A DNA stretch of 64,000 bases, taken from the sequence record MZ358387, one strand, 5' to 3'. The notes beneath the pieces are model-generated. The model searched no databases. It was not told the origin of the DNA and was given only the letters and a program-made list of their open reading frames with translations. Positions 130 to 40,919 of the stretch are shown piece by piece; the stretch's first letter is position 1, and the number at the start of each line of letters is the position of its first letter. Made by a program: the position numbers and the translations under genes. The DNA is from Shigella virus Moo19.

Positions 130-178
130 TTAACCCATATGCGTGTTCCATACAGGAACCAGATGCAGGAGTAATAAA

Positions 179-1396: not shown

Positions 1397-1400
1397 TATG

Positions 1401-1436
1401 AGCCTCATACCTTCGGGTATGGGGCTTATTTTTTTC
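1401..1436 (+). terminator. rho-independent terminator after the RNAP II gene
   Basis: 11-bp stem agcctcatacc/ggtatggggct (one mismatch), loop ttcg, then TATTTTTTT. Confidence 0.7.
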
Positions 1437-1453
1437 GAATTGAGGACACAACT

Positions 1454-2275: not shown

Positions 2276-2296
2276 GCTGATAGTTTTGTTTGGCTA

Positions 2297-2325
2297 AAGC
2301 CCTCCTTGTGAGGGCTTTCTTGTAT
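2297..2325 (+). terminator. terminator-like hairpin (weak U-tract)
   Basis: Stem aagccctc/gagggctt, loop cttgt, followed by 'tcttgtatc'. Confidence 0.35.
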
Positions 2326-2341
2326 CTATAGGAGAGTAAAA

Positions 2342-2656
2342 GTGACTAACAAATTACGTGTATGGCATATCCCGCAAGTGCCAATGAAAGCATTCTTTGT
2401 AGAATGCGATAGCATTCAGGAAGCTGTTAAAATTCGTAGTGCACTGGCAGATTACGACTTGTTCCAGTATGAGAACAATGTCAAAGGTGATTACTGTAAC
2501 GCCAGCGGTATTCATATCTGGGATGAAACTCTGTCTGACCAAGACCTCATCGATATGGAACTAGACGACCGTTGGGTTGACTGGTTCTATGAAGATGAAA
2601 ATGAATACTTCGATGACCCAGAAGAATATCTGGAATGGCTTGCTACGCAATCCTGA
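2342..2656 (+). CDS. small highly acidic protein (hypothetical; DNA-mimic candidate)
   Basis: GTG 2342 preceded by GGAG at 2331-2334. C-terminal half is dense in D/E and aromatic residues ('DMELDDRWVDWFYEDENEYFDDPEEYLEW'). Confidence 0.45.
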   Translation: MTNKLRVWHIPQVPMKAFFVECDSIQEAVKIRSALADYDLFQYENNVKGDYCNASGIHIWDETLSDQDLIDMELDDRWVDWFYEDENEYFDDPEEYLEWLATQS

Positions 2657-2703
2657 TTGCTTTTTTGGGTTGAGCAAACCCGTAACATTCCTTTGATATC
2701 CTT

Positions 2704-2731
2704 GACCTCCCTAAATGGGAGGTCTTTTTTT
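2704..2731 (+). terminator. rho-independent terminator
   Basis: Stem gacctccc/gggaggtc, loop taaat, then TTTTTTT. Confidence 0.75.
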
Positions 2732-2758
2732 GGTTGTTATCTACTTTGGAAAATAAAT

Positions 2759-2959
2759 ATGAAATTTTCTGATTTACTCTGGGCAATTCTATTCCTGTTA
2801 CTTACTGCCTTTATTTATGGGGTAGTACTGCCTAATGCAGTATCTGCTTCAGATAGTATAAGTGTAGTAATTGGATTGATTGTTTCTATTATGTGGCCTG
2901 TTATAGCAGGTCGTGTTGTTTACCTTATCGTTAAGAAACGGAAGAAGAAACATGCGTAA
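2759..2959 (+). CDS. small membrane protein with two predicted TM helices
   Basis: ATG 2759 downstream of terminator 2704-2731. Two hydrophobic helices ('LLWAILFLLLTAFIYGVVL', 'VVIGLIVSIMWPVIAG') and a basic tail. Overlaps the next gene by 8 nt. Confidence 0.45.
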   Translation: MKFSDLLWAILFLLLTAFIYGVVLPNAVSASDSISVVIGLIVSIMWPVIAGRVVYLIVKKRKKKHA

Positions 2960-3788
2960 ATTTATTATAGGTTGTTTACTGGCAATAGTTGCAATGGCTA
3001 GTCTTACTGGTTGTTATCAACGAGTAGAGCCAGGTAATGTAGGTATTATCGTTAACCGTTTGGGTGACGATAAGGGCGTTGACCAACAAGTAAAAGGCGT
3101 AGGCCGTTACTGGATTGGTTGGAATGAAGACCTGTATACGTTCCCGACATTCAAACAGATGAAAACCTACGACGATAAGTTTTACTTCCAACTGTCGGAC
3201 GGTACTCAAATTGGCCATCAACTGGCTATCAGCTATAAGGTCAACCCGACCAAAGTAGCGACCATCTTCCAGACCTACCGTAAAGGTGTCGATGAAATCA
3301 CTGACCAGGATTTACGTCAGCGTATTGCCGATATCCTGAACCGTCAGGGTAACCTGATTAACACTGACAAGTTCATTGACGGTGGTAAGTCACGTTTGCT
3401 GGATAGTGTAGCTGATGCAGTTAAAAAAGAGATGGAGCCAGTCGGTATCGACATTATGGCTATCTCCTGGGTAGGTGCACCGGAATACCCGGACAACGTG
3501 AAGCGTGCAATTAACGCGAAAGTTGAAGCTACCCAGAAAACCCTGCAACGTGAGCAAGAAGTGCAACAGCGTATCGCTGAAGCAAATATGGCTCGTGAGC
3601 AAGCCAAAGGTGAAGCTGATGCCGTAGTACTGAAAGCAAAAGCAGAAGCTGATGCTATTAAGCTGCGTGGTGATGCACTTCGTGAAAACCCTGGTGTAAT
3701 GGAACTGGAAGCAATCAACAAGTGGAATGGTGTATTACCAACCACAATGATTCCAGGTGCAGCCACACCATTTGTGCCTGTTAAATAA
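2952..3788 (+). CDS. SPFH/band-7 (HflC/prohibitin-like) domain lipoprotein
   Basis: ATG 2952. Signal peptide with canonical lipobox 'MRKFIIGCLLAIVAMASLTGC'. SPFH-type core followed by an Ala/Glu/Lys-rich coiled coil ('QREQEVQQRIAEANMAREQAKGEADAVVLKAKAEADAIKLRGDA'). Confidence 0.65.
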   Translation: MRKFIIGCLLAIVAMASLTGCYQRVEPGNVGIIVNRLGDDKGVDQQVKGVGRYWIGWNEDLYTFPTFKQMKTYDDKFYFQLSDGTQIGHQLAISYKVNPTKVATIFQTYRKGVDEITDQDLRQRIADILNRQGNLINTDKFIDGGKSRLLDSVADAVKKEMEPVGIDIMAISWVGAPEYPDNVKRAINAKVEATQKTLQREQEVQQRIAEANMAREQAKGEADAVVLKAKAEADAIKLRGDALRENPGVMELEAINKWNGVLPTTMIPGAATPFVPVK

Positions 3789-3794
3789 CAATAA

Positions 3795-3821
3795 AACCCC
3801 CAGACATTGCTGGGGGTTTTT
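3795..3821 (+). terminator. rho-independent terminator
   Basis: 9-bp GC-rich stem 'aacccccag'/'ctgggggtt' with loop 'acattg', followed by TTTTT. Confidence 0.75.
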
Positions 3822-3837
3822 ACGTCTGGAAAGTGTA

Positions 3838-4188
3838 ATGGAAAAGAACCGCAGGAAGACACTCATTGAGCGTCTGCTTGCCCGTATCAAGATAATGGAT
3901 ATGGGCTATACCGTTAATGGTCAGCCAAGCCTATGCCACATCTGGACTGGTTCCCACTCTGGGAATGGTCGAGGTGGTCAATATGGCAGGATTTCCGTGA
4001 ATGGAGTTACCTCTGCTACACATATTGTGGCCTATACCCACTATCACGGTTACATCCCTTGCAAAATGCAGGTAGACCATCTCTGTAATAACCGTCTGTG
4101 CTGTAACCCGGAACATCTCGAACTGGTGACTCACCAAGAGAACCAGAGAAGAAGAGCTGCACGCCAAACTAAAGGTAAAAAGAAATGA
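3838..4188 (+). CDS. HNH homing endonuclease
   Basis: Start placed at ATG 3838 because the upstream in-frame ATG lies across the terminator. Motif 'HIWTGSHSGNGRGGQYGRISVNG...VDHLCNNRLCCNPEHLELVTHQEN'. Confidence 0.7.
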   Translation: MEKNRRKTLIERLLARIKIMDMGYTVNGQPSLCHIWTGSHSGNGRGGQYGRISVNGVTSATHIVAYTHYHGYIPCKMQVDHLCNNRLCCNPEHLELVTHQENQRRRAARQTKGKKK

Positions 4189-4355
4189 TGAACTATTTAG
4201 GTGGTATTACTCTTGGTTGGCTTATTACCGCATTAGTTTTTGTATATCTGCCAGATGAGCATATTGCTAAAGCAAAAGCCATGAAAGAAACTTGCGAACA
4301 AAAACTTTCTCGTGAGCAGCAATGTGTAATGCAATTCGTACCGGAGAAAAAATGA
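4185..4355 (+). CDS. small membrane protein (56 aa), not in the ORF track
   Basis: ATGATG at 4185 overlaps the HNH stop codon (ATGA). One TM helix 'GGITLGWLITALVFVYL'. Ends TGA 4353-4355. Confidence 0.3.
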   Translation: MMNYLGGITLGWLITALVFVYLPDEHIAKAKAMKETCEQKLSREQQCVMQFVPEKK

Positions 4356-4577: not shown

Positions 4578-4922
4578 ATGAGTGACCGTACTCCCTCAAC
4601 TGATGCCCTGGAAACTCTCGGCATGATTCACTTCAAACCGGAACATCGTGACGCTATTCACTTAGCTGTTGAACCAGTTAAAGCAGGATTGCCACTGTCA
4701 CCCGGTGAACGCATTGGTATCGTGGATGGCTTTGCTTATCCGGCTGGTTATAAACTGGTACTGGAAAACAAAGCATTGGTAGTCCCTTACCACGGAATTG
4801 TTGACCCATTCCTGCCTAAAGGTGTTATTACACCAGGCAAATCCTTCTGGTTCGTAATGGCTCCACGTATGGTTACATCTCTACGTCATGTCTGGTCACA
4901 CCCGGAGTTCCCTGATGAGTGA
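4578..4922 (+). CDS. hypothetical protein
   Basis: Strong RBS AGGAG 4566-4570 with 7-nt spacer to ATG 4578. Confidence 0.5.
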   Translation: MSDRTPSTDALETLGMIHFKPEHRDAIHLAVEPVKAGLPLSPGERIGIVDGFAYPAGYKLVLENKALVVPYHGIVDPFLPKGVITPGKSFWFVMAPRMVTSLRHVWSHPEFPDE

Positions 4923-5274
4923 ACCATTAGATATTAATGATACCGGGCTGTGTGAAGCACTGCTCATCATGGGCGACGAAAAAGCCGTAGCCTGGGCATG
5001 GATTCGAGGTTATACCAAGAATCTGCTACAACAAATCGAAGAGTATCTCGGTGACACAGACTATAAATATCAGTCCAATGTCATTGAAGATGAATACGAC
5101 TTAATGGAACTCGCTGACGGTCACCAAAATGGTAACTGGGGCGATTACATGATTGTCGGTGGACTCTTTGAAGGTGAAAGAATTGACCCAACTTTTTGGA
5201 ACAAATATGCCCTCGTCCGTGGTATTCCTCGTGAAGAAATTTCAGAAAGTAATCTCTTCTCTTGCTCCTGTTAA
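4915..5274 (+). CDS. hypothetical protein
   Basis: ATG 4915 preceded by GGAG 4904-4907; overlaps the upstream stop by 8 nt. Acidic. Confidence 0.45.
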   Translation: MSEPLDINDTGLCEALLIMGDEKAVAWAWIRGYTKNLLQQIEEYLGDTDYKYQSNVIEDEYDLMELADGHQNGNWGDYMIVGGLFEGERIDPTFWNKYALVRGIPREEISESNLFSCSC

Positions 5275-6344: not shown

Positions 6345-7517
6345 ATGAACCAGATACCTCAGCACACTTTGACCGACGAGCAACTCATGCGAGAGTATGA
6401 CCGTACTCAGGCTCAGGCTTTTCTGGGCAAGAGTGCTGCGTTCTTTGGCTCACTACTGTGTAGTCTTAAATTCTCCTGGCAACGGGAGAATTGCGATACC
6501 GCTCAGACCGATGGTACTGAGCTTCAGTTTAACCCTGACTTCTTTGTCTGGTTAAAGCCTGAAACAAGAAAGACCGTGCTTATGCACGAGCTTTGGCATG
6601 TAGGTTATCTGCATGGTGTCCGTCAGGGTTCTCGTGACCCAGAGTTCTGGAACTATGCCTGTGACATCTACATTAACAACCAGTTAGAAGACGACGGCTA
6701 CTCCTTCGAGGGAGTAGAGAACTGCTGGAAAGACCCAAAATATAAAGGTTGGGTCGAAGAGGATATTTACGATGACCTTATGAAGAATCCCCACAAGAAG
6801 CCGAAGGCATTGGGGGCATTTGGAACAGGGTCTGGTGGAGATATGGTTAGCCCCACTTCGGGTTCATCTCCTGCAACTATCGTCAACAACGTAGTACGTG
6901 CACTGCAACAACAAAAACTGGCTGGTGGCACACTAGCTGGTACTGGTGCAGGCCGTATGCAAGAGGTGATTACCCAATTCCTCAAGCCAGTAGTTCCGTG
7001 GCAGCAAGTCCTGTTCGACTTCTTCACTGACATTGATGACACCAAGTACACCTGGGCAAGACCTAATCGTCGTTACCCGGATATGTACCTGCCATCTCTG
7101 GAAGATGATGAAGGTCGCTTACGACATCTGGCCTATTTCGAGGATGTCTCTGGTTCCATTAGCAATGCTGACTCTCTGCGTTTTAACTCAGAAGTGGCCT
7201 ATGTTAAGAGCCAGTTTAATCCGAAGAAAATGACCCTACTCACTTTCGATACTGTTATTCAGGACGAAATCGATATCACCGAAGAGGATACCTTTGAGGA
7301 GATTAAGATTACAGGCCGTGGAGGTACTTGCCTCAAGCCTGTTCGTGAGTGGATTATCAAGAACAAGCCAACTGCTGCTATCATCTTCTCTGATATGCAC
7401 GTTGCACCTATGGAAGAACTCCCGTTTGATATACCTATCATCTGGGTTTGTTTGGGAAACCGACATGCCACCGTGCCTTTCGGTGAAATCTTACATATTG
7501 ACCCAGGAATGAAATAA
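6345..7517 (+). CDS. VWA-like protein with N-terminal HExxH metallopeptidase-like motif (DUF2201-like partner of MoxR ATPases)
   Basis: Starts 4 nt after the ATPase gene. 'LMHELWHVGYLH' motif near the N-terminus; C-terminal half resembles a VWA/MIDAS-type domain ('YFEDVSGSIS'). Confidence 0.5.
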   Translation: MNQIPQHTLTDEQLMREYDRTQAQAFLGKSAAFFGSLLCSLKFSWQRENCDTAQTDGTELQFNPDFFVWLKPETRKTVLMHELWHVGYLHGVRQGSRDPEFWNYACDIYINNQLEDDGYSFEGVENCWKDPKYKGWVEEDIYDDLMKNPHKKPKALGAFGTGSGGDMVSPTSGSSPATIVNNVVRALQQQKLAGGTLAGTGAGRMQEVITQFLKPVVPWQQVLFDFFTDIDDTKYTWARPNRRYPDMYLPSLEDDEGRLRHLAYFEDVSGSISNADSLRFNSEVAYVKSQFNPKKMTLLTFDTVIQDEIDITEEDTFEEIKITGRGGTCLKPVREWIIKNKPTAAIIFSDMHVAPMEELPFDIPIIWVCLGNRHATVPFGEILHIDPGMK

Positions 7518-8640: not shown

Positions 8641-8667
8641 AAAGCCCACTTAATCGTGGGCTTTTTT
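8641..8667 (+). terminator. rho-independent terminator
   Basis: Stem 'aagcccac'/'gtgggctt', loop 'ttaatc', then TTTTTT. Confidence 0.7.
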
Positions 8668-10843: not shown

Positions 10844-10849
10844 ACTTAA

Positions 10850-10875
10850 AGACCTCCTACGGGAGGTCTTTTTTT
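10850..10875 (+). terminator. rho-independent terminator
   Basis: Stem 'gacctcc'/'ggaggtc' with loop 'tacg', then TTTTTTT. Same stem as the terminator at 2704-2731. Confidence 0.75.
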
Positions 10876-17116: not shown

Positions 17117-17136
17117 CCCTCTACGGAGGGTTTTTT
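17117..17136 (+). terminator. rho-independent terminator
   Basis: Stem 'ccctc'/'gaggg' with loop 'tacg', then TTTTTT. Confidence 0.7.
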
Positions 17137-21898: not shown

Positions 21899-22177
21899 AT
21901 GACTAAGCTCTCCGGTGGTCTTAATAACTGGTATGTAGTACCAGTAAAAAATCCCCAACGGAAAGAGCAAGAGCCATATCAGGCAGAGTGTGAGGATATT
22001 ATCCAGGCACTGGGCATGACCTTCGATGAAGGTTGTGCCTTTAAAGCCTTATGGCGAAATGCTGCTGCTCGTATGGGTAATGGTAAACCAGGCAACACTG
22101 CTGTTTACGATGCTCAAAAAATGGTGCATTACACCACTCGTGTATTGAATAAGGAGTTAGCTGATGAAGATAACTAA
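21899..22177 (+). CDS. hypothetical protein
   Basis: ATG 21899, 1 nt after the upstream stop. Confidence 0.45.
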   Translation: MTKLSGGLNNWYVVPVKNPQRKEQEPYQAECEDIIQALGMTFDEGCAFKALWRNAAARMGNGKPGNTAVYDAQKMVHYTTRVLNKELADEDN

Positions 22178-23144
22178 TGAACATGACGTAAGTCTGGCCT
22201 TAGCTGTCTGGCTCCTGTACGACGAATATGACTATGTGGATAATCCGAAGTATCTTTCGGCTACCACACTGCTTAAACCACTTAAGCAGATTGTCATGAA
22301 GCACCGTGTTGACTTCAGCAATGAGTCAATCGATGTGATGGACTTTGCTCAGGCTTCGATGGGTACTGGTTTACACGACTCTATCGAGAAAGCATGGAAG
22401 TTAGGCCATAAGTCTGCACTCAAGAAACTGGGATACCCAGACCGTGTTGTTAATGCTGTAGTCATTAACCCTACCAAAGAAGATTTCGATAAGAACCCGA
22501 ATTTAATTCCGGTGTATATCGAACGTCGTGGAACCAAGAACCTCAGAGGCTGGCTCATTGGGGGTAAGTTCGACATTGTAACAGAAGGTCTGTTGCAGGA
22601 CTTTAAGTCCACCTCAACCTATTCCTGGGTTGCAGGTTCCCGTGACGACGAACATAAAATGCAAGGTAGCATCTACCGTTGGATTCACGATGATGTAATC
22701 ACAGAGGATGTGATTCGCATTAACTACATTTTTACCGACTTCGTTAAGTACATGGCAGCAAATAATCCGAAGTATCCTGCCCGTCGCATTATGCACAAAG
22801 ATATTCCGTTGCTGTCTTACGAACGTACTGAAGCCTGGCTAAATGAAAAGCTACAGCTTATTGAGAAGTACTGGGATGCTCCTGAAAGTGAAATCCCTGA
22901 GTGTACTGACGAAGAGCTGTGGCGAACTGAGCCACAGTTTAAGTATTTTTCTGACCCAACAAAGGTAGATGTACCCGGAGCGAGAAGTACTAAGAACTTT
23001 GATGACATGATTTCTGCTCGCAAATTCATGGCTGAAAAAGGTGGTAAGGGTGCAATCAAAGTAGTCGAGGGACAAGTTAAACGCTGCGAGTATTGTGCCG
23101 TAGCACCTATTTGTAAACAAAGAGAGAGATATTTCCCATCATGA
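22164..23144 (+). CDS. PD-(D/E)xK nuclease with C-terminal Cys cluster (RecB/Cas4-like)
   Basis: AAGGAG then ATG 22164. 'GKFDIVTEGLLQDFKST' fits a D...D-x-K active site; C-terminal 'CEYCAVAPIC' cysteine cluster. Confidence 0.55.
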   Translation: MKITNEHDVSLALAVWLLYDEYDYVDNPKYLSATTLLKPLKQIVMKHRVDFSNESIDVMDFAQASMGTGLHDSIEKAWKLGHKSALKKLGYPDRVVNAVVINPTKEDFDKNPNLIPVYIERRGTKNLRGWLIGGKFDIVTEGLLQDFKSTSTYSWVAGSRDDEHKMQGSIYRWIHDDVITEDVIRINYIFTDFVKYMAANNPKYPARRIMHKDIPLLSYERTEAWLNEKLQLIEKYWDAPESEIPECTDEELWRTEPQFKYFSDPTKVDVPGARSTKNFDDMISARKFMAEKGGKGAIKVVEGQVKRCEYCAVAPICKQRERYFPS

Positions 23145-23656
23145 GTAAGCTGACTCAGCAACGGCTGAAAGAGTTGCTGCATTATGACCCATTAACTGGG
23201 ATATTCACTCGCCGCATTTCTTTAAGCAACCGCACACCAGTAGGTAGCGTTGCTGGGTCACTTAATAAAAGTGACGGCTACGTCTACATAACTGTTGATT
23301 CAATACGTGAATCTGCACATAGATTGGCTTGGTTGTATGAAAAAGGTGTTTGGCCTAAAGGTCTTATAGACCATAGGGATACAATACGTCATCACAACTG
23401 GATAGCAAATTTAAGGGAAGCAGATAAAAGTACTAATGGTGCTAACCGTGGACTGAATATAAACAACACCACTGGTTTTATGGGTGTTGCAAAATTCAGA
23501 AAGGGATACCGAGCAGCAATAAAGGTAAACCATAAATCATATTTTTTAGGCGTGTTTCCAAAGGCAAACGATGCAGCAAAAGTCTATGACCAAGCAGCTA
23601 TTGAACACTTTGGTGAATTTGCTGTCACTAACATGAGTTTAGGATTAATTACATGA
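23141..23656 (+). CDS. HNH endonuclease with AP2-type DNA-binding domain (homing endonuclease)
   Basis: HNH region 'GLIDHRDTIRHHNWIANL' followed by an AP2-like segment 'GFMGVAKFRKGYRAAIKVNHKSYFLGVFPKANDAAKVYDQAAIEHFGEFAVTN'. Confidence 0.7.
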   Translation: MSKLTQQRLKELLHYDPLTGIFTRRISLSNRTPVGSVAGSLNKSDGYVYITVDSIRESAHRLAWLYEKGVWPKGLIDHRDTIRHHNWIANLREADKSTNGANRGLNINNTTGFMGVAKFRKGYRAAIKVNHKSYFLGVFPKANDAAKVYDQAAIEHFGEFAVTNMSLGLIT

Positions 23657-25809
23657 GTATCGACCTTACTGGTATAAGCCACCATCCTGCAATTGAAGAA
23701 ATTGTGGATGTGTTGTGTAACAAGACACAAAATAACGACCGGGGGTTCTTCCGTGTCGAAGTAGCTTACTTCCTGGCTAAAATGGCATCCTGTATGGGTG
23801 CAACCATCGTCACTAAAGACCGTGGTGACCTGCCAGTAAACATCTATGCTATGGCGTTAGCTACGTCTGGCTTCGGTAAAGGTCACTCGGTAAATATCAT
23901 TGAAGATGGGTTCATGTCTGGATTCCGTAAACGTTTTATGGAAGACACCATGCCCGTCATCTCTAACGACCGTCTATGGCGTATTGCCAATGACCGTTCT
24001 GCAAGGAATGGTACTGACCAACAGGAAGAGTTTGATAAAGTTGAAGCTGAGTATAAACGTGCTGGTGCATATCCATTTACGTTTGACTCAGGTACTCCAC
24101 CAGCAGTTAAGCAATTACGCCATAAACTGTTAATGGCTGGCTGTGGTTCTATCAACCTACAGATTGACGAAATTGGTTCCAACTTGTTAGCCAACGTCGA
24201 TGTGCTGAATCTGTTCCTGGAGTTATATGACCAGGGTAAGGTTAAGCAGAAGCTGACCAAGAACACTGCCGAGAGCCAGCGAGGTGAGGAACTGGACGGT
24301 AAGACTCCAACTAATCTGCTGCTTTTTGGTACGCCAAGTAAACTGCTGGATGGTGGTCAGACCGAAGACCAGTACTATGACTTCCTGGACACTGGTTACG
24401 CACGTCGTTGTATCTTTGCTATCGGTCAAGTTGACCGTAAAGCCTATAACACAATGACTCCTGAAGAAATCTACCATAACCTGACTAAGCAGGATAATAC
24501 GGCATCGTTAAGTAAGTGGGCTAATAAGTTTCACGACTTAGCTGACCCAAATTTATTCGGCTTTAAGATGGTAGTAGAAGACGATGTAGGTATTGCCCTG
24601 ATTGCTTATAAAATTGACTGTGAAAGACAAGCTGAAGCTATGGCTGACCACGAAGAAATTCGTAAAGCTGAAATCTCTCACCGTTACTTTAAAGCACTCA
24701 AACTGGCTGGTGCATTGGCCTTTGTTGACCAAAGTTCATTTATTGAAATGGGTCACTTACAGCAAGCCATTCTGTTAGTAGAAGAGTCTGGTGCAGCATT
24801 CCAAACAATTCTGAATCGTGAGAAAGCTTACGTTAAGCTGGCTCGTTACATTGCCTCTGTAGGCAAGGAAGTAACTCACGCAGATTTGCTGGAGTCATTG
24901 CCATTCTATAAGAGTGGTAATGCAGCTCGTAATGAGATGATGACCCTTGCTACTGCATGGGGCTACAAACAGCACATTATTATTAAGAAGACCTTCAACG
25001 AAGGAATTGAGTTCTTCCGTGGGGAAACTCTGAAAGAAACCAATACTGATGAAATGGTAATCGCCTACAGTGATAACTTTGCTTATAACTACATTGGCGA
25101 AAAAGTACCATTCGACCAGCTTCATGTGCTGACCCAGCATGAGGGTATGCACTGGATTAACCACCACGTTAAGAACGGTCATCGTTCTGAAGAAAACGTT
25201 ATCGCTGGCTTTAACATGATTGTTATTGACTGTGATGGTGGCATTCCACTGAATACGTGCCATGAACTGATGAAAGATTATAAGTTCATGACGTATACCA
25301 CCAAACGTCACACAGATGACGAAAACCGTTTCCGTCTCATTCTGCCAATGAACTACCAACTCGAACTGGACACAGAAGAGTACAAGGAGTTCATGAATAA
25401 CGTTATGGCCTGGCTCCCGTTTGATACGGATGAATCAGCCAACCAACGTGCTAAGAAATGGATGTCTTGTGAGACAGGAACGTATCACTACAACCTTGAA
25501 GCTCCACTTCTGGATGTACGTGATTTCATTCCTCGAACCAGTAAGAACGAGCAATTCCGTCAGCATATGCAACAGGTTCAATCATTGGATAACCTGGAAC
25601 GTTGGTTTGCTGGGCGTATTGCCTCTGGCAACCGTAACAACCAGATGATTAAGTATGCCCTGGCTCTCGTAGACAGTGGCTGGGACTTTAATCAGGTTCA
25701 TAAGTCAGTGATGGAATTTAACAAGAAATTGTCTAATCCATTGCCAGACGATGAACTTAACTCAACTGTTATGGTCACTGTAGCGAAGAAATTCGCAGGC
25801 AGTAAGTAA
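23653..25809 (+). CDS. putative DNA primase (N4 gp43-like by size and position)
   Basis: 718-aa protein between the nuclease and ATPase/SSB genes; P-loop-like 'ATSGFGKGH'. Assignment rests on synteny. Confidence 0.4.
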   Translation: MSIDLTGISHHPAIEEIVDVLCNKTQNNDRGFFRVEVAYFLAKMASCMGATIVTKDRGDLPVNIYAMALATSGFGKGHSVNIIEDGFMSGFRKRFMEDTMPVISNDRLWRIANDRSARNGTDQQEEFDKVEAEYKRAGAYPFTFDSGTPPAVKQLRHKLLMAGCGSINLQIDEIGSNLLANVDVLNLFLELYDQGKVKQKLTKNTAESQRGEELDGKTPTNLLLFGTPSKLLDGGQTEDQYYDFLDTGYARRCIFAIGQVDRKAYNTMTPEEIYHNLTKQDNTASLSKWANKFHDLADPNLFGFKMVVEDDVGIALIAYKIDCERQAEAMADHEEIRKAEISHRYFKALKLAGALAFVDQSSFIEMGHLQQAILLVEESGAAFQTILNREKAYVKLARYIASVGKEVTHADLLESLPFYKSGNAARNEMMTLATAWGYKQHIIIKKTFNEGIEFFRGETLKETNTDEMVIAYSDNFAYNYIGEKVPFDQLHVLTQHEGMHWINHHVKNGHRSEENVIAGFNMIVIDCDGGIPLNTCHELMKDYKFMTYTTKRHTDDENRFRLILPMNYQLELDTEEYKEFMNNVMAWLPFDTDESANQRAKKWMSCETGTYHYNLEAPLLDVRDFIPRTSKNEQFRQHMQQVQSLDNLERWFAGRIASGNRNNQMIKYALALVDSGWDFNQVHKSVMEFNKKLSNPLPDDELNSTVMVTVAKKFAGSK

Positions 25810-26659: not shown

Positions 26660-27451
26660 ATGTCAAATCTGTTTGGTAATCTGAAAGACAAAACCAAAAA
26701 CGCTGAAGCTACTAAAGACTCCCTGGGTGGTGGCTTCGGTGCTAAAGAAACTGACATCTACACTGGTGTTGTGAAAGTTGCCTACGTAGGCAAAGCTGAC
26801 TCCGGTGCTGACTGGATGCAGCTTATCATCGAAGAACTGAAGAACTCTGACGGTGCACCTGCTGGTGAATACCGTGAGCAAGTCTACTTCACTTCCGGTA
26901 AAGAAAAAGGCAACAAGCCTACTTACGAGAAGAACGGTAAGGAATACTTCCTGCCTGGTTACACCACCATCAACGATATGATGTTGATGACTACTGGCAA
27001 AGAACTGTTCGAAGCTGACTTCGAAGAGAAGATTGTCAAAGTGTATGACTTCGACCAGCAAGCCGAAGTTAACAAGTCTGTCATGGTTCCAGTCGAAATG
27101 ATTGGTCAGCCAATCACCATTGCGATTGAAAAAGTTCTGGAGAACAAACAGTCCAAAGGTGACGACGGTAAGTACTACGACAACGGTGAAACCCGTGAAG
27201 TAAACAACATCCAGAAAGTGTTCCACCCGGAACTGTTGGTTACTGTTGTTGAAGCTCGTGAAGCCGAAAAAGCAGAGAAAGACCTGACGCCTGAACTGGC
27301 TCAGTTCCATGCTGCATGGCTGGATAAGAACAAAGGTAAAACCCGTGATAAAACCAGCAAGACTGGTGGCAAAGCGGGTACTCCACCTAAACCAGGTTCT
27401 ACTGGTGGTTCTGCTCCGGCTGGTGGTAAGTCTCTGTTCGGTAAGAAATAA
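26660..27451 (+). CDS. putative single-stranded DNA-binding protein (N4 gp45-like by size and position)
   Basis: 263 aa with a Gly/Lys/Thr-rich flexible C-terminus ('KTGGKAGTPPKPGSTGGSAPAGGKSLFGKK'). Confidence 0.45.
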   Translation: MSNLFGNLKDKTKNAEATKDSLGGGFGAKETDIYTGVVKVAYVGKADSGADWMQLIIEELKNSDGAPAGEYREQVYFTSGKEKGNKPTYEKNGKEYFLPGYTTINDMMLMTTGKELFEADFEEKIVKVYDFDQQAEVNKSVMVPVEMIGQPITIAIEKVLENKQSKGDDGKYYDNGETREVNNIQKVFHPELLVTVVEAREAEKAEKDLTPELAQFHAAWLDKNKGKTRDKTSKTGGKAGTPPKPGSTGGSAPAGGKSLFGKK

Positions 27452-28011
27452 TGCAAATCCCAATTCTCGGAGCAGACATCTCTCTTCGGAATTGGGGATT
27501 AGCAAGGGGTATGCTGGACATTGAGTCCGGCGTGTTTGAGAAGGTAGAACTCAAACTGGTTCAGACTGAAGTTGACCACAACAAGCAAGTCCGAACCAAC
27601 TCCAAAGACATTCAAGCTGCCCATGATATCTTCATTGGCGTTAAGGACTGGTTCATTGAAGACAAGCCCAAAGCTGTATTCATTGAAGTGCCTGTAGGCT
27701 CTCAGTCTGCTAATGGCATGAAGTCATATGGCTTGTGTGTCGGACTCGTTGGGGCATTCCGTGCATTGGGATGCCCCGTCTTCGAGGTATCCCCTACCGA
27801 AAACAAAATTGCACTGGCTGGTAATAAAACAGCCTCCAAAGACGTAATGATACGTACTGCCTACGAAATCTATCCTGAAGCTAACTGGCTCAAGGATAGT
27901 AAGGGTAAGTTGCTCAATAAGAATGAGCACTTAGCTGATGCAATCGGTGCAATCCATGCTGGTGTAAATCTGCCAGCGTTTCAAAACTTACTGAAAATGT
28001 TAAAGGCTTAA
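27451..28011 (+). CDS. RuvC-like Holliday junction resolvase
   Basis: TAATG overlap. RNase H-fold acidic residues in 'ILGADIS', 'VFIEVPVGS' and 'EHLADAIGAIHAG'. Confidence 0.5.
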   Translation: MQIPILGADISLRNWGLARGMLDIESGVFEKVELKLVQTEVDHNKQVRTNSKDIQAAHDIFIGVKDWFIEDKPKAVFIEVPVGSQSANGMKSYGLCVGLVGAFRALGCPVFEVSPTENKIALAGNKTASKDVMIRTAYEIYPEANWLKDSKGKLLNKNEHLADAIGAIHAGVNLPAFQNLLKMLKA

Positions 28012-30412: not shown

Positions 30413-33400
30413 TTAGTTTACCAGATTCATCCAAGGGTTGAGGTTATGAGCACGTAAGCCCTGACCCAATCCGATAGAGTAATCCAGTCTACCATCAGCA
30501 GCAGCCGAGAACAGGTTATCCTGTAATGGCAGACCAACGTTACCAAACATGGTAGGAGTTGGAGCCAGCATAGCCATAGCTGCATGAACAGGGTTATTAC
30601 GAATCATGGACACTGCAACTTTAGTAGAACGAATCTTAAAGTTATAGAACCACATCAGACCCATGCTTTCCATGTAACCACGGAAACGACCCGGCAGACG
30701 GTCATAGTTAATGAACTCTTCGGTAACACGACCCAGAGCTTCTTCCTTACTCTTACCTTTACGCTTAGTCAGTTCATCATAGATGATTGCTTTAGCAATA
30801 AAGTCAGAGTACTCAACCGTCTTCTGGATACCCTGGAACAGAGCAGTATCCTTAGTGATAAGTGCATAACGACCAGCAGTTTGCAGCTTCTTAGGCAGCT
30901 TATCTGCTAAACGCTGCATGTACTCCTGTACCTTACCATCCGGGATTAACAGGTCATCACGAGAGATACCAGCATCAGCAATAGAAGAGAACTCACCAGC
31001 TTCCAGCAAAGGCCAGATACTCATACGCTTATAGCTATCATTGATGGACTGAATCTCAGCTTTCAGTTTACGAGCCTGGTTCGGATTAGTAGTTGCACGA
31101 AGTTCTGCTTCAGCATCAACCTGGCGAAGACGAGACTTCATATACTGGTTAATCTCAGCAGTCTTCTGAGGGATACCTTTAGCAATATCCTTAACTGGAA
31201 CACCACGGGCAACCATCTGATAGAGGTTAGCCAGGAAGTTCACAGCAGGAACCACGAGAGACTTGACCACGATTAAGGTCTTAGCCTCACGTACAACCGT
31301 CTGAGTGATATTCTCACCCTGCATAAAGTATTTGTATGCACGGTTGCCAAATACGCCCAGCATTGCTTTCTTGAAGGTATCCAAAGTCTCAGGTGACCAA
31401 CGAGAGTTACCAGTCCATACATCACCAACAGAAGCAGCACGATAACCAAGTGCATCATTCAACATGTCACGACGTACCCACAGTTCACCATTACCAAACA
31501 GTGACTCAGCTTTCTGACGAGTTTCTGCATTCATCAGACGCATAGCATCAGCAGTAACTGGGTCAAGTTTAGAACCAAGAAGGTTAATGTACTGGCTCTT
31601 ATTGCTGGTAGAATCTGCCATGTCCTTCTCGTACATAGCGTGAAGATTTTCAATCAGAGCATCGTTAAACTTCTGGGCTTTAGCTTCTTCTACCTGACGA
31701 CCTCGCCATACACCAATTGCTTTAGCAAGGTTATCCTCACCAGCAATGTGAGTCAGCATGTTAGGGTCAATAGAGTGCTCATAAGCAACCACACGACCAT
31801 TGCCATCATAGATAGGCATCAGTGGTTCATTACCACGTTCACCCTTCGCCAGAGCTTTGGTGATACGGTCAACGGAAGGCTTGTCAGTAATACGACCAGC
31901 AACCATTGTTCCCATTGTGAAGCCAGTACCAACATCCACACCACCAGCAGTATTACGAACGTTCTGGAGAATACCCTGTGAGTATGGAGCACGAGCAGCA
32001 ACCGGGCTGAAGTAGTAACCACGACTACGAGTACGTTCACCAGAGCTACCCTGATAACCAGCAATACGAGTGAATGACTTCTCACTCAGTTCGTTAAACT
32101 GGCTGTCTTCTGCAACAATCAGGTTAACACCCTGCTTAGTCTCAGAAGGAATGTAGCCTTTGTAGTGGTTCAAACGAGCACGGTCATCATTCTGTGCTTT
32201 ACGTTTCTCTTCCACACGCTGGCCTACCAGATAGGAAGTGACAAAGTCCATACCTTCGGTTTCAGTCTGAGCCAGGGAAGCTAATGCCTCACGGTCAGCC
32301 TGACTCATTGCTTCGATGGCATACAGAGTAATCAGCTTGTCTAAGGTGTCCACATCAACGGTAGATTTAACGCTGGTACGCTCACCTAACAGACGGGAGA
32401 TTGCCTCAGCATTACGCAGCAGGTTGTTACCGACAGTACCATTAATCATGTACTGAGCCAGTTGCTTAGACTTACGGTTAATCAAAGGCCAGTTACGTCC
32501 TGCCTGATTCTGGAGGTCAGCTTCCAGCTTATTAACCAGCTTATCCATTTCTTTCTGTGAAGACAGCAGGTCACGAATTTCACCCAGACTCATGGTGTCA
32601 CGCAGTACAGCAAGGTCAGTTTTACCCATACCAGTGTGCATAGCTTTCCACTCTGCATCAGTCAGCTTACGGCTGAACTTAGAAGCAATAGTGGTAGGCA
32701 GATGCTCACGGAATTGCTGACGGTCAGCCTGTACCTGAGAGCGAACAGCTTTAATCATGTCATAGACAGAAGCATTCGACTTAGTACGACCTACGATGTC
32801 ATTAACCAGGTCATAGAAAGGTTGCCATGCTTTTCCCTGGTTCATTGCAGCCATAACACCCTGTGCAACTTTCTCACCGTTCTTCTCAGTAGCAATAGCA
32901 GCTACCAATTGAGCAGCATGAGCAGTTGCCTTAACCAGTGGGTTCTTAGCATTAGCAGCAACATCACGAGCAGTATCCAGTGTGGCATCAGCCAGACGTT
33001 CTACACCATCAACAATATATTGGTTAGCACGGTCAATCATATTCCCAGTTGGGGTAGCAACAGAGTCATAGAAGGACTGAGCATTCAGGCTGGATTCCAT
33101 AATAGTTTCTGCCAGAGCATCAATACCTTCCTGAACGTTAGTTGCTTTGGTATCACCAGCAACACGCTTGTTCAGGCTATCCATTGCAGCTACGCCAATG
33201 TTAGTCAGCATTGCATCAATAGTATTACCGGATGCTTTATCTGCTTTCATAACAGGCATGTCAGTCAGTACGTTACGTACCTCTTCGCTTACCATTGCCA
33301 GACCAACAAAGGTAGGCAGTAAGGAAGAACGACCCTGAGCATCAAACTCAATATTGTTAGCACCCATCAACGTATCGAACTTCTGTTGAGCATAGTAACG

Positions 33401-36400
33401 GTCAGCAGGGTTAGTGCTGTTCGGGTCTGCCATGAAGTCTTCTACTTTCAGGTTCTTGGTAACGTGAGTGTAATACTCCTGAGCACGAGCCAGAGCAGCA
33501 GGATGAATTGCAGCCTCAGTTGCTAGTGCAGCAACAATGTTGGTGAACAGACGACGTTCTTGCATGTTCATAGTAAAACCATGCCCCTGAACATCACGAG
33601 TTACCTTAACTGCATTCACTACTGCGTCAGAGAATTTACCCTTACGCATATGTTGCTGTACCGGGTCATTACCCAGGTAGTTCGTAATGAGACGGTCAAA
33701 GGTTTGACCCAGTGAAGTAAGACGGTCATTGTTGCCATAAGCAGTGCTATGGAACAGGGTAGCCTCAGCAGTAACCGGAGCAACCGGAGGCTGTGAACGC
33801 ATCACTACAGCAGAGTTAAACAGCAGACCGGAGAACATATCTTCACCGTAAGCAGGGGCTTTCTTACGACCAAAAATGAGGCGTTTAATTGCTTCATAAA
33901 CATCTTTAACCATCCTGGTAAGAGCAGTGGTTTTCTTCTGCTTCTTAATCAGTTCATGGTTGGTTAAGCCCCATGCCATGTACTCATTCAGTGCAGCAGC
34001 TTTAGCCATTGCTGGGTCAATGAAACCGTTGGACAGATGACCATTGATAGTATCCAGTGCATCAGCGTAAGCCTCACGCATAGCCGGAGTATCTTTGGAT
34101 ACATCCAGACTACGGAACTGTTCCATCAGATTCTCGATGTTCTGTACAGCTTCATTGGTCTGGCCTTGATAGTGGTCAAGTACAGTCTCAAAAGTAGAAG
34201 CATGAACCAGTTCATGAATCAAGGTTTCCATTGATGGGCTAACCAGGTAGACAGTCTTATCTGCAAAGTTAGTCCAACCATAGATATTACCTGCATTTGC
34301 AGCTTCAATATCTTCTGGAGCAGGACGCTCTACGTTACGTTCCATTGCATACTGGTCAATCTGGTTCACGTTACCGTAAACAACCTTGTAGCCTTTAGCA
34401 GCCAGTGACTTCTGAATCTCATTCAGTACAGCAGCCTGTTCAACAGGAAGGTTGGACTCTTTAGCCAGTTTGTTAATAGCAGTCTGAGACAGCACACGAA
34501 CACCAGACTTCAGAGCACGGCCTACAGTATCAAACTTATTAGTATCGGCTACTGGAGTCTTCTCAGCTTTACGAGCCTCTTTACGAGCCTGCAATTCAGC
34601 ATCGAATAGCTCATTCAGTTTTGCTACTTGCTGGTCAACAGTCAGACCATCCAGAGAGATATTACCGTTGTTCACATAAGGGGAACCAACAGCAGCCATC
34701 TGGTCAACAGTAGTCTGTACCTGGTTCATTACCTTGTGACGGATATCGACACCCAGAGCAATGTTACGCAGGTTACGCTCAATAAGATTAACACCTGCTT
34801 TCTCAATCATATCAATCTTATACTGCCTGTCACCATCAACACGACTGATATGAGAAAGTTGTTCAAAATCCAAAGCAGAACGGGCAATACTATCAATTGC
34901 TTCATCTGATAACTTATTGAAATCTACATTTTTTACAAACTTAGAGAAGGAGTCATACACATTCTTGATAGGGTTACCCTGCCATGAAGTGTATACAGCT
35001 TCGTTAGCCTTACGGCTTGCATCAGTGATGTCATTGATACCGATGTTCATACCATCAAAGATTTTGAGAGTATTTTTCGGTGCACCTTTCATAATAGAAA
35101 GGGTCTGCATCATCATGCCGTCACCAGTACCAATCGTCATGAAAGGAATACCAGCAACACCAGCTTGTGACGGTGCATAGATGCTCATTGGCACACGCAT
35201 ACGGTCATCAAAGTTGGTAGCCAGAACCTGGTTAGCAACATCAGTATTCTCAGAACCAGCAATGTAGAAAGTCTGGGAACCAGTCTCAATCATTGGAGCT
35301 AAGTCAGACAGTGAAGCCTGAATATCGTTAAGCTCTTTCTGAGTTAAGAAGTCACCCTTCTTCCAGTTAGGGTCTTTTTCTTTTTCTGCCAGCTTCTCCT
35401 GGACACGTTGCTGGAACATGTCTTGCAGAACCAGAGACTGAATCTGGGTAGCTTTCTGAAGCTGTTCAGTGGAGTGCATCAGCCCTTCACCAACAGTATT
35501 CTGAATACCCTGTCTCATTGGTTCAACGAAAAAGTGCAGCATGTTCTCTTGCAGAGACTTCAGTTGCTCACCTTTGACAGTGAACTTCTGAGGGTCAATC
35601 TTGCCAGACATAGCAGTACCAGTGTCTTCAAGAGACAGTTTACCTTTACGCATAACTGGAACAGTACCAGTCAATGCTTTCATGTCTTCAATGAAACGAC
35701 CGAGCATAGCCTCAGCATCGGCCTCAGATGCTGCCTGCTTGCCGAACATTGCCATAGCCGGGGAAATGTCCGGGTTCTGTGCACGGGCTTGCAGAACGTC
35801 GCTGAAGCGTTCGTAGATGGCATCAGTAATTGCACTCACCATCTTGCCTGCAATACCACGAGCACCGGAACCATAAATGGTAATGGTCAGTGGGTTCTTG
35901 GCAATGCCACGTTTCAGTTCGAGGTTGCCTTCTTCATTGATGTTATAGTCAGGAATGAACAAGTCCATCAGAGAGGACAGATGATTCATCTGAGTATTAA
36001 CAGCCGGGTTATTGGCATAGGTATTTCGCAGGTTAGTCAGTGCAGCTTTCAGACCGTTAGTGGATGCTTCGTACAGGTCAACGCTATCGTCAATAGAACG
36101 ATGTTCGTTCATCGTCTTACCAGCACGACCAAAGAATAGACCACCCTTAGCAGTATTCTGTACCCATTCTTTGGTGAACTTACCACCAGTCATCAGCATC
36201 ATTGCGTTAATCGGACCGTTGGTTACACCATCAGCCTCAACGTACAGTGGAGTGTTGAACTTAGACTTGTCTTCAGCATTCAGGTAACGGGCATACTCCA
36301 TCAGAGCCATGAGAGCTACGAAGGATTTATCACCACCCAATGCAGTATTCAGAATCTCAACAGAGTTATCTGGCAGGTTCCCAGTTTTATCGAAATCAAC

Positions 36401-39400
36401 CATCATATCGACAGCAGGTTTCAAATTGCCTTCCAGTGCAGCAGTCAGTTTTGCTGACATTGCCTCACGAGACATGTTGTGAACCTTGATGCCCAATGCC
36501 TGAGCCAAGCCAACCTGGAAATCAGAGAAGGTCTGTGAGTTTTCATTGGACAGGTCAATAGTAGAAAACGTAGGCAGAATAGCTTCACGAACCAGCTTAC
36601 TGGACTGAGGATTATTCTTACCAAGCATCTGCATACGACCAACACGAGTCATGTTGTAGGCATAGTGGATTGGAGTTTCCAGTCCGTTTTCCTGTGCACG
36701 AGTTTGCTCTACCACACTAAACAAGGAATCATAAGCCATAGCTACTGACAGGTTTTTACCTTCCAGTGACTTAGCAGTATTCACATTCAGCAGTTCAGGA
36801 TTAAGCGTACCAGCACCCATCAATTCCAGAATCTTGTCACGACCCATAGCCTCATAGAAGTTAACCATAGGTTCATGAATACGGAACTCAGTAGCCTGTT
36901 CTGCTTTCAGAGCAGCTTTCTGTTCCGGGGTATTCTTAACAGCAGGGTTGCGTAACTGAGTCTGAGCCACAGAAGGTACGTCGTCACCGAAGTACATTTT
37001 CTCTTCTGGTTCTACCAACACAGCTTCTTCAATTGCTGTAGGGAATTTATTGATAGGGTCATTGTCTGCCAGCTTATCAATGGTATACAGACCAACAGTC
37101 TTAGTGGAGTCTGGGTCAATTTCAGAGACATCTAGCATAGTCTCAGTAACTTCACCTGCTTCAATAAGAGCAGACAGAATCTCAGTTGCCATAGCAACAG
37201 GGATACCTTTGGTATAACCCAGTGGTGCATTAGGGTTACGGTCAAAGCCCCAGTAAGATTCAATTTTCTGAGCCAGTGAGTTAGTAGCTTCAACGAGAGT
37301 CTGAGCATTCTCAAACATCTCAACTACACCTTCCGGTAACAGAGCCTGTTCAATACCAGTAATAGCAGCCACGTCTTTAGCATCTTTAACGGCAGCATTC
37401 TGAGTAGCAGTCAGTCGCCATTGCAGACCAGCAAGTACGGCAGTTTCAAGCAGAGAATCGTTGAACTTAAAGCTATTGCCATCTGGTTCAACAATATTCA
37501 GCAGCTTACCACCAACCCAACGGTTAGCTTCAGTGCCCTCAGCAAAACGCTTACCTACGTTCTTGTTAGACAGGAACTTAGCCAGTCGGTCATTCAGAAT
37601 GGATTTAATGTTTTCACCCGTGTTCATCAGGTCTTTATAACGACCAGATACATCAGGGGTAAGAGCAGTATTCTCACTCTGAGTAAACGTTTCGAAACGT
37701 GCATTAGAAGACAGAGCCTGACCAATATCTTTCATTGGAGACTCGGAACCAGTGGTACGAGACTTAGGTTCAGCAGGTAATGAGTAAGCAATCTTGAGGT
37801 AATTTTTTACCCCAGGCTGGCTGACATCAGTACTCCCAACCAAATCAGGATAAGCAGCGTCAATACCACTACGAGTGGATTCCACTTCATTAGTAGTTTC
37901 CTCAGTATTTTCAGTAACATCCTCGATGCTACCCTCATTGATGAGGGTAGCATCCTTTGCCTTTTCGGATTGAGGCTTAGTTACTTTCTCTGGTTCTGCC
38001 TTAGACTCAGTAAAAGGAGCACTATTTTCTACCGTCGATTCCCTATTAGGAGTTACAGTAGGTGCAGCCTCCTGAGTTTGTGCAGGAGTTTCGTCAACTT
38101 GATTCACTGGTTCATTAGTCTGTTGGGATTGAGCAGCGTCAAGATTGCCCTGACGGAACTCTTTAACCACCTGGGCAGCAGGCTTGTCCAGACGTGAATC
38201 CAATGAGGTAACATTGATATGAGAAACGTTAAGCTCCGGGTAAGCCGTAGCAAGTGCATTAGCAATATCAGCTACGGTTTTGGCTTCCAGTCCTACTTGC
38301 TGGGCAAACTTAACCGACTTGGTATCGTAAGGATTAACACCGAGTCCAGTACGACTTCTTACCCATTCACGGGAAGGGGTGAGGGCTTGGTAATGGACAG
38401 ACTTATTCTTATCCGCATTCCCAGAAATCAGATGTTCATTCAACGCTCCGACCTTGTTCTGCATGTGCTGGGCGAACTGCATAAAGTCGCTCAAATAAGC
38501 GGAAGCCAAATCGAAGTTACCAGAGTTATACGCAGACCGAATGCGTTTAGCATGTTGCAACGCAGAGTACTGGCCTTCATTAGAACGAGACTCGTCGGTT
38601 TTAATCTGTTTACCCACAATGTCTTGAGGCCGTAAACCAAGCTGTTCAGCTTTGGTATCAAACTCACGTGCTCCCTGTAATAGAGCAGCAGCGGATTGCA
38701 GGGCAGCACGTTGACGATTGTTCAACGTAATCTTGCCTTCACTCGCATGTTTCAGAACCATGTTCACTGAATCAGCGTCCAGTACTTCCGGGCTTACGTC
38801 AGCAGCCATTGCTACGTTGTTAGCCTGATTCTGGTCTGCTACATCTTCGGTCACATTCAGATTACCTTGTTCAGCTTGTTCCTGAATCATGGAATGAATG
38901 GCACGGAATGCACGAAGTACCTTTGGAGTATTCTGGATGTTAGCCATCAGACCCGAATACTGGTCGAGCACAGCATTAGCAGGACTATCTTTAGGCAGAT
39001 TGTTCAGTGCAGCAGGGTCACGGTTAACGAAGTCTTCCATCTGCATAACCATGTCGTACATATTGGCAGCAGCTTCCATCATCTGGTTCGGGTCTTCAGT
39101 AGTGTTAACTACATCAGCCAGTTTCTGGATTACCTGAACTCGGTCAGTGGAACCGTTAACAGCTTCCTGAACCACAGGAGAAGCATCAGCAAATTCTTCC
39201 GGGTTAATACGGGTAGCATTAACCAAATCACTTGCATACTGGTGTGCAGCAGCCTTCTCTTCAGGAGAGATGTCCATTGCTTCAACAGCATCAGCCATAG
39301 TTGCCTGAGCAGTATCTGCTTGTGCAGCAGCTTCCTGAGCAGCCTCAGCTACTTTAGCGTCAGCAACAGGAGAAGCCTCTTCATTGCGTCGTGCAACTTC

Positions 39401-40852: not shown

Positions 40853-40919
40853 AGCTTGTTTCCTGTTCAAACTTATATCTATAAGAGAACTCACTGTACA
40901 TTAAGTGAGGGTAAGAAAA

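Follow-up and report, generated by a model that had tools for sequence, protein, structure and literature searches.

The window analysed here, a 64,000-nucleotide stretch of Shigella virus Moo19 (record MZ358387), carries on its plus strand a gene for a 116-amino-acid nuclease of the HNH (His-Me finger) type. The gene is an orthologue of gene 22 of phage N4 and is probably a long-resident, mainly vertically inherited His-Me endonuclease gene that is kept by selection on the phage, rather than a recent selfish insertion. Genes of this kind are already known, N4 gp22 having borne a putative homing endonuclease annotation since 2009 or earlier, and the finding is largely an ordinary one: an old, strongly conserved resident of N4-like genomes. 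An earlier note had described a complete, free-standing HNH gene that starts just past a strong terminator and overlaps a tiny membrane-protein open reading frame (ORF), and had interpreted it as a mobile homing-endonuclease insertion. Each element of that description was confirmed; the interpretation was partly supported. The window DNA matches N4-like coliphages (Schitoviridae, Enquatrovirinae), the closest record being that of Escherichia phage Jgk1; gamaleyaviruses (G7C-like) come next, and then N4.

The gp22-type protein and its predicted active site

The ORF is intact from its ATG at 3838 to its TGA at 4186-4188, and it stands free between protein-coding genes, with no intron or intein and with its catalytic motifs undamaged. 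Its product matched Pfam HNH_3 (PF13392) over residues 60-104 and profile positions 2-46 of 46 (E = 3.8e-19; 68.5 bits against a cut-off of 24.8), and also matched zf-His_Me_endon (E = 2.4e-06) and the PHROG family phrog_1872, ‘endonuclease’ (E = 4e-45). An NCBIfam search gave no family for the protein, and a single-sequence search of PDB sequences gave no meaningful match. The protein comparison proposed in the earlier note returned close relatives: the amino acid identity is 88.7% to N4 gp22 (YP_950500) over residues 2-115 and 96.6% to an unannotated ORF of Jgk1. Homologues fall into 92 clusters among 5.8 billion proteins, all of them single-domain and about 100-190 residues long (mostly 102-140). 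A hidden Markov model of the family (67 homologues) found no paralogue in the window, but missed a divergent second HNH gene that was caught by Pfam (Table 1).

In the alignment of 67 homologues, C33, W36, G38, H62, G71, H81, C83, C88, L94 and N102 are invariant, and D80, N90, P91 and H93 are among the residues conserved in at least 90% of the sequences. The AlphaFold2 model (mean predicted local distance difference test score 92.7; predicted template modelling score 0.82) begins with an N-terminal helix and continues through four strands and a further helix to a beta-beta-alpha unit. The fold is of the beta-beta-alpha-metal type, and its general-base His and its metal-binding Asn are conserved. 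The C-terminus lies 14 residues beyond N102, no Cys or His follows N102, and no separate DNA-binding module was found in the protein.

A profile search of PDB sequences aligned DHLCNNRLCCNPEHL...N of the window protein with SHLCHNTRCHNPLHL...N of the His-Cys box enzyme I-PpoI (PDB 1A73). H81, C83, C88, H93 and N102 fall with identical spacing on the motif S-H-L-C-x4-C-x-N-P-x-H-L...N, where the I-PpoI residues are the catalytic His, the three ligands (Cys, Cys and His) of the first zinc site and the Asn that binds the metal. The first zinc/catalytic motif of the I-PpoI type, H-x-C-x4-C-x4-H with an Asn 21 residues past the His, is thus present; the sequence match (17% identity, E 0.06-0.1) is not significant alone and is supportive only together with the fold match. 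The window protein differs from I-PpoI (162 amino acids) in having neither the second zinc site nor the C-terminal dimer-swap extension, and its gene, unlike that of I-PpoI, is not encoded in a group I intron and does not lie in ribosomal DNA. I-HmuI of Bacillus phage SPO1 (PDB 1U3E) is intron-encoded, 174 amino acids long and equipped with C-terminal helical/helix-turn-helix DNA-binding modules, and has no zinc site; the window protein corresponds to its catalytic domain only.

The sequence shows a His-Me nuclease active site that is intact, apparently stabilised by zinc, and subject to strong purifying selection. On the sequence and the model together, H81 would act as the general base, and N102, with D80, would hold the catalytic metal. 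C33, C83, C88 and H93 would form a structural zinc site of the I-PpoI type, and DNA would be held by the N-terminal helix, the four-stranded sheet and a basic C-terminal helix. The predicted protein would cut or nick DNA during the replication phase.

Table 1. Features of the window discussed in the text
Feature	Position	Strand	Basis
SPFH/Band-7 lipoprotein gene, N4 gp20 orthologue	2952..3788	+	Band_7 (1.2e-22); phrog_200 (5.6e-96)
Intrinsic-terminator-like hairpin and T-run	3793..3821	+	RNA fold; analogues in N4 and IME11
Leader, 16 nucleotides, weak Shine-Dalgarno-like GGA	3822..3837	+	Read from sequence
gp22-type HNH_3 / His-Me finger nuclease gene, 116 amino acids	3838..4188	+	Pfam; PHROG; N4 gp22 identity; AlphaFold2 model
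Single-pass membrane-protein ORF, 56 amino acids	4185..4355	+	phrog_7508 (2.6e-13; unknown function)
ATGA-coupled ORF of the same tightly packed array, 65 amino acids	4352..4549	+	phrog_7665 (4.8e-18)
Second HNH_3 gene, 171 amino acids	23141..23656	+	Pfam; phrog_99 (5.6e-61)
RuvC-like Holliday-junction resolvase gene	27451..28011	+	phrog_159 (1.2e-43); no Pfam match

Selection, phylogeny and base composition

The ratio of nonsynonymous to synonymous substitution rates (dN/dS) of the HNH gene was 0.052 against Jgk1, 0.022 against the metagenomic relative IMGVR_3300024308, 0.069 against N4 and 0.041 against KP8, values that are the lowest or near-lowest within the locus. Across 15 genomes the mean pairwise p-distance was 0.337 for the HNH protein, compared with 0.534 for the ATPase, 0.539 for the large subunit of the phage RNA polymerase RNAPII and 0.582 for gp25; these three are signature genes of the family, among which gp22 is unlisted (PMC7650795). 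Only in the Jgk1 comparison was the synonymous rate (dS) clearly low. It was 0.68 against IMGVR_3300024308 (neighbouring genes, 0.67-0.93), 1.08 against N4 (1.06-3.2) and 2.4 against KP8 (1.1-2.8), and the high protein identity in these comparisons reflects constraint rather than recent transfer.

Distances between HNH sequences followed those between core genes (Mantel r = 0.72, p = 2e-4). A neighbour-joining tree of the HNH proteins (107 columns) recovered Enquatrovirinae with 94% bootstrap support, a clade of the window, Jgk1 and the IMGVR sequence with 90%, and four genus-level pairs with 86-100%, including KP8/IMGVR_Kleb17 (100%), CB4/Kc283 (100%) and Pokken/RiverRider (86%). The tree is congruent with the core genes at genus and subfamily level, and its deep nodes are unresolved. 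The base composition of the gene is native, with a GC content at third codon positions (GC3) of 0.479 against 0.45-0.49 in core genes.

Distribution across N4-like phages

The distribution was determined in a collection of isolate phages, as single-protein scans of IMG/VR gave just 10-11 loci each. A gp22-type HNH gene was found in 228 phage records (tblastn, E<=1e-22), at a single place in each, and in 224 of them one piece covered at least 80% of the query; there are therefore no decayed copies. A gp24-like ATPase gene was found in 499 records (E<=1e-20). Counted by the host named in the record, HNH and ATPase genes were equally frequent in phages of Achromobacter (17 and 17 records), Pectobacterium (14 and 14) and Stenotrophomonas (10 and 10), with 90 and 112 records for Pseudomonas, 23 and 39 for Klebsiella, and 18 and 69 for Escherichia. 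Litunavirus was represented by 72 records by its ATPase (at least 95% identity) and by 72 by its HNH gene (at least 90% identity). The N4/KP8-type band of ATPases, at 60-80% identity, held 27 records, and the 80-90% band of HNH matches held 26. On these counts the gene is fixed in most genera that possess it and absent from whole lineages.

The presence/absence polymorphism that the earlier note had proposed to look for was found in the next band: among 54 records with an ATPase 80-90% identical to that of the window (gamaleyaviruses and Jgk1), the HNH gene occurred in Jgk1 only. The absence is clade-wide in Gamaleyavirus, and sporadic presence and absence among close relatives was not observed. 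Gamaleyavirus loci keep homologues of the 56- and 65-amino-acid ORFs while the HNH gene is absent. A decayed remnant was also sought there, and was rejected, since blastn (word size 7) of window positions 3789-4200 against five HNH-less loci returned chance-level matches only.

The simplest history for these observations is that the gene is an ancient resident passed on vertically, was lost once in Gamaleyavirus (with further losses elsewhere), and has only rarely been relocated or transferred over deep time. One loss is the more parsimonious because all outgroup subfamilies examined have the gene. It is quite improbable that there was instead no Gamaleyavirus loss, and that the lineage of the window gained a gp19-gp22 block, or the HNH gene alone, from an N4- or KP8-like phage after the split. 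Such a gain would fit the collinearity of the window with N4 over 174-3819 (gp16 to gp20 and the terminator), given that Jgk1 and IMGVR_3300024308 have no gp19-gp20; it would also fit the identity to N4 of the HNH protein (88.7%) as against the ATPase (62%), and the position of the HNH dS against N4 at the low end of its neighbours’ range. However, the HNH gene lies behind different upstream genes in Jgk1 and IMGVR_3300024308, and is therefore older than any one block; its dS is not clearly below that of its flanks, and its high amino acid identity is explained by low dN rather than low dS.

Evidence bearing on mobility

A number of observations weigh against long residence under phage-level selection, and many of them would suit a different explanation, in which the gene is an active selfish free-standing homing endonuclease that persists by invading HNH-less relatives, such as the gamaleyaviruses with which it shares E. 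coli hosts. Their DNA would be cut near the empty site and the gene copied in during repair. The closest solved folds to the protein are those of the homing endonucleases I-PpoI and I-HmuI, and the PADLOC ‘homing endonuclease’ model matches it at 4.9e-10. About half of the ATPase-bearing records, including most Vibrio N4-like phages (6 records with HNH and 107 with ATPase), give no HNH match at E<=1e-22, and the gene is dispensable for that reason. The closest large group by ATPase, about 53 Gamaleyavirus-type records, is entirely without it. In the gamaleyavirus IME11, a homologous terminator and leader (ATAAACCCCAGCATTGACTGGGGTTTTCTACATCTGGAG...) are joined straight to the membrane-protein gene, which makes an ORF-exact empty site with terminator and leader common to both arrangements. 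The dS of the gene against Jgk1 is 0.285, whereas that of its neighbours is 0.6-1.5.

The genomic address of the gene also varies, with four contexts across the family. It lies between the RNAPII genes and the ATPase gene in Enquatrovirinae, Rothmandenesvirinae, Erskinevirinae, Pokkenvirus, Riverridervirus and Cbunavirus, immediately before the dCTP deaminase gene in ZC03, immediately before rIIA in Litunavirus PA26, and past rIIB in a roseophage (also PMC2784036). Homologues about 50-55% identical occur in the non-N4-like phages Athena1, where the gene adjoins that of replication protein O, and Skulduggery, where it stands in a block of unannotated hypothetical-protein genes; in unclassified metagenomic contigs the homologue adjoins DNA polymerase A or a DnaB/primase pair. 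A replication-gene neighbourhood of this sort is a typical address for a homing endonuclease. The non-Schitoviridae homologues (Athena1, Skulduggery) and the metagenomic ones, whose contigs differ in their replication-gene context, nest among the HNH sequences of the family. The roseophage homologue was annotated by its authors only as a ‘putative homing endonuclease’ (PMC2784036), and no experimental study of gp22 was found in the searchable literature. The comparative literature on N4-like phages that was searched mentions neither HNH nor endonuclease and mostly leaves gp22 unmentioned, and the phage-essentiality preprints searched had none of the N4-related terms looked for.

The PA26 record divides its gp22-type HNH gene (locus L028, 15855-16441) between two ORFs, gp40 (‘hypothetical’) and gp41 (‘HNH endonuclease’, 63 amino acids). 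Residues 3-109 aligned there by tblastn as one uninterrupted piece, and the gene call is therefore probably wrong.

The flanks of the gene are mosaic. Homology between the window and its relatives breaks exactly at the ends of the HNH ORF: it restarts at 3838 against Jgk1, covers only 3839-4188 against IMGVR_3300024308, spans 3841-4192 against N4 and stops at 4188 against KP8. The upstream neighbour is an SPFH gene in the window, an unrelated ORF in Jgk1 and an Ig-protein gene in IMGVR_3300024308. Breakpoints at exact ORF ends are a further point in favour of a selfish element. The stretch from the RNAPII genes to the ATPase gene is, however, variable in relatives with and without the HNH gene, HNH-less gamaleyaviruses included, and the flanks show no raised identity, the adjoining membrane-protein gene being just 38-40% identical. 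By these comparisons the gene is a conserved island within a variable stretch, whose variability its nuclease may promote or may simply survive. Homology to HNH-less genomes extends for only about 50 bp upstream and 47 bp downstream, a poor substrate for recent homing.

Other observations also argue against an active selfish element. Patchiness within a genus was absent wherever it was tested (72 of 72 Litunavirus records), the copies are single and full-length, and the tree, the composition and a constraint stronger than that on the family signature genes are as described above. The protein lacks a separate DNA-binding module, and its 92 homologue clusters are all short, as given above. A selfish, actively homing gene is accordingly considered unlikely, and long residence with mainly vertical descent remains the preferred account. 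In favour of the earlier interpretation stand the homing-type fold, the ORF-exact absence from Gamaleyavirus and the multiplicity of contexts; a mobile insertion is not supported, given fixation within genera, the lowest or near-lowest dN/dS, and an absence that is clade-wide.

Terminator, leader and translational coupling

The hairpin AAAACCCCCAG-ACATTG-CTGGGGGTTTT, with a loop of 6 nucleotides, occupies 3793-3820 and has a T-run at 3817-3821. Its start is 5 nucleotides past the SPFH stop codon (3786-3788) upstream, and its end is 16 nucleotides short of the HNH ATG. Its RNA fold has an energy of -20.3 kcal/mol (z = -4.1), and none of 200 shuffled sequences folded equally well. The pattern scan gave this hairpin on the minus strand only, as its longest-stem rule absorbs the T-run, and a separate scan placed it on the plus strand.

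The earlier note had regarded the HNH gene as insulated by this terminator, a suggestion that the relatives do not support. N4 has a hairpin and T-run at the same site past gp20, followed by gp21 and then gp22, and on that ground the terminator is assigned to the SPFH gene upstream. Among the loci compared, a terminator directly upstream of the HNH gene occurs only in the window and in IMGVR_3300024308, and the two terminators differ. In Jgk1, N4, KP8, phiAxp-3 and a metagenomic relative (L021) the start of the HNH gene overlaps the ORF before it or abuts it, without a terminator. The promoter scan gave no sigma-70-like site between the terminator and the HNH ATG. As 16 nucleotides are too short for a promoter, expression of the HNH gene would depend on read-through of the terminator at 3793-3821, which would act as a partial terminator of the SPFH gene. 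By what is established for N4, the locus is the middle-gene region, which the phage RNAPII transcribes.

At its other end, the HNH gene meets the 56-amino-acid ORF in an ATGA overlap, the ATG at 4185 overlapping the HNH TGA, and the HNH stop would be translationally coupled to this small membrane-protein gene. A further ATGA, at 4352-4355, couples the 65-amino-acid ORF. The HNH/downstream-ORF ATGA recurs in Jgk1, IMGVR_3300024308, KP8, a Klebsiella-type contig and phiAxp-3; the junction is conserved operon architecture and not an insertion scar.

The plus-strand early/middle array contains six strong hairpin/T-run sites (2296-2318, 2704-2724, 3793-3821, 8641-8664, 10848-10871 and 17115-17132), which stand after several different genes. 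Terminators of the types GACCTCCC...GGGAGGTC and AAACCCC(C)AG...CTGGGG(G)TTT recur at the module joints of relatives, before different genes. Such recurrent terminators may serve as recombination joints or as graded attenuators.

Placement relative to N4 and possible roles

N4 gp22, annotated ‘endonuclease’ and a member of the same PHROG family, lies in the same place as the window gene: the gp20 SPFH lipoprotein gene with its terminator stands upstream, and a gene for a small membrane protein and then the gp24 ATPase gene stand downstream. The N4 order is gp20-gp21-gp22-gp23-gp24. In the window, the order is gp17 Ig protein, gp18, a small membrane protein, gp20 SPFH lipoprotein, gp22 HNH and a small membrane protein, with the gp24 ATPase, the gp25 metallopeptidase/VWA protein and dCTP deaminase farther downstream. 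N4 differs in having the additional 74-amino-acid gp21 between the terminator and gp22, and in that gp23 abuts gp22 whereas the window membrane-protein ORF overlaps the HNH gene. The window in turn has extra small ORFs ahead of the ATPase gene.

If the gene is kept by selection on the phage, the phage would benefit from the nuclease activity of gp22. The benefit might lie in the phage’s own DNA transactions during the replication phase or in the cutting of the genomes of co-infecting HNH-less relatives, two alternatives that are about equally likely. It can be proposed tentatively, as a reading less likely than not, that the gp22 proteins are domesticated, minimal nucleases of the I-PpoI type that derive from a homing endonuclease and now have a working role in the infection cycle of N4-like phages. 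A domesticated gp22 might be a nickase that acts on replicating phage DNA at particular sites or structures, or a weapon against co-infecting HNH-less relatives. Domestication would explain why the protein is conserved above the hallmark proteins and yet lost by whole genera.

Terminase-associated HNH proteins are small, and the size of the window protein (about 115 amino acids) resembles theirs. An accessory packaging role like that of HK97 gp74 or the HNH proteins of staphylococcal cos phages, in which the protein would cut concatemers together with terminase, was considered on this ground, the mechanism that makes N4-type genome ends being not fully known. The HNH gene, however, is a plus-strand gene of the middle/replication region, the late genes lie tens of kb away on the minus strand, and no terminase gene (or, in the window, terminase or portal gene) adjoins it in any locus examined. 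Pfam gives HNH_3 and zf-His_Me_endon, with PF01844, the family of the HK97 gp74 type, unlisted, and whole genera package their DNA without the gene. The terminase-helper role was rejected on location, family and dispensability, and is very improbable.

The possibility that gp22 is the missing Holliday-junction resolvase of N4-like phages was also rejected, as a RuvC-like resolvase is encoded in the window (Table 1). The resolvase gene follows the SSB gene directly and occupies the place that the unannotated gp46 has in N4.

The label ‘HNH endonuclease’ in an N4-like phage is not by itself the mark of a mobile element or of a recombination hotspot. If it is true that gp22 benefits the phage, it would offer a tractable example of a nuclease of homing-endonuclease fold that is kept by selection on the virus.

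A second HNH gene and other HNH insertions

The window holds HNH genes of both kinds: the fixed and constrained gp22-type gene, and a patchy insertion between exonuclease and primase genes. Both are HNH_3 ORFs squeezed in between adjacent genes, with overlapping start and stop codons. The second is wedged, overlapping at its start and at its stop, between a gp42-type exonuclease gene (22164..23144) and a gp43-type primase gene (23653..25809). Jgk1 and N4 do not have it, and in both phages the exonuclease gene directly adjoins the primase gene. An 80% identical orthologue occurs in five gamaleyaviruses only, with a 49% identical allele at the same site in others; the next matches come from unrelated phages of Burkholderia, Salmonella and Ralstonia, some of them with two copies. 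Its GC3 is 0.32, compared with 0.45 in its flanks. A patchy, insertion-like signature is thus seen in the sequence of this gene and not in that of the gp22-type gene, and it is the better candidate for a homing endonuclease.

HNH insertions were also observed near the ATPase gene of relatives. The gp24 ATPase gene of some gamaleyavirus relatives is interrupted by an HNH gene inserted into it (phage U1G, L002 3230-5164; L011 5932-7849), and the U1G record carries the remark ‘Phage intron’. In U1G, gp25 is annotated as two ORFs with overlapping gp25 matches and nothing inserted between them. An HNH-like ORF lies between the ATPase gene and gp25 in a further locus (L008, 8165-8353). On these arrangements, mobile HNH elements are active in the ATPase/gp25 neighbourhood.

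Neighbouring genes

The SPFH protein is 80.6% identical in amino acid sequence to N4 gp20. The window gp18 is an exclusion protein of the P22 gp17 type (Pfam GP17, 2.9e-46). A minus-strand ORF of 3493 amino acids lies at 30413..40894.

The 56-amino-acid ORF has LGGITLGWLITALVFVYL as its sole hydrophobic stretch, and its homologues exist without the HNH gene in Gamaleyavirus. It is 38-40% identical to the counterpart in each relative, Jgk1 included, and its composition is atypical (GC 0.37, GC3 0.28). By its sequence it looks like an allele that has been exchanged, the breakpoints coinciding with the two ends of the ORF. Homologues of the 65-amino-acid ORF were found in all Enquatrovirinae loci examined but that of N4, and the KP8 homologue lies upstream of the HNH gene.

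Two plus-strand ORFs, at 4578..4922 and 4888..5274, overlap by 35 nucleotides in different frames and match the N- and C-terminal halves of phrog_11912 (226 positions). The same two-ORF layout was found in Jgk1, and the pair may reflect a gene that has been split or a translational frameshift. Orthologues of gp25 are named ‘HNH endonuclease’ in RefSeq (N4, KP8, phiAxp-3, PA26 and others). The window gp25 protein (6345..7517, plus strand) matched a DUF2201_N metallopeptidase domain (2.3e-64) and a VWA-like domain (1.3e-35), with no HNH match; the RefSeq name looks like a propagated misannotation, one that would inflate counts of HNH genes.

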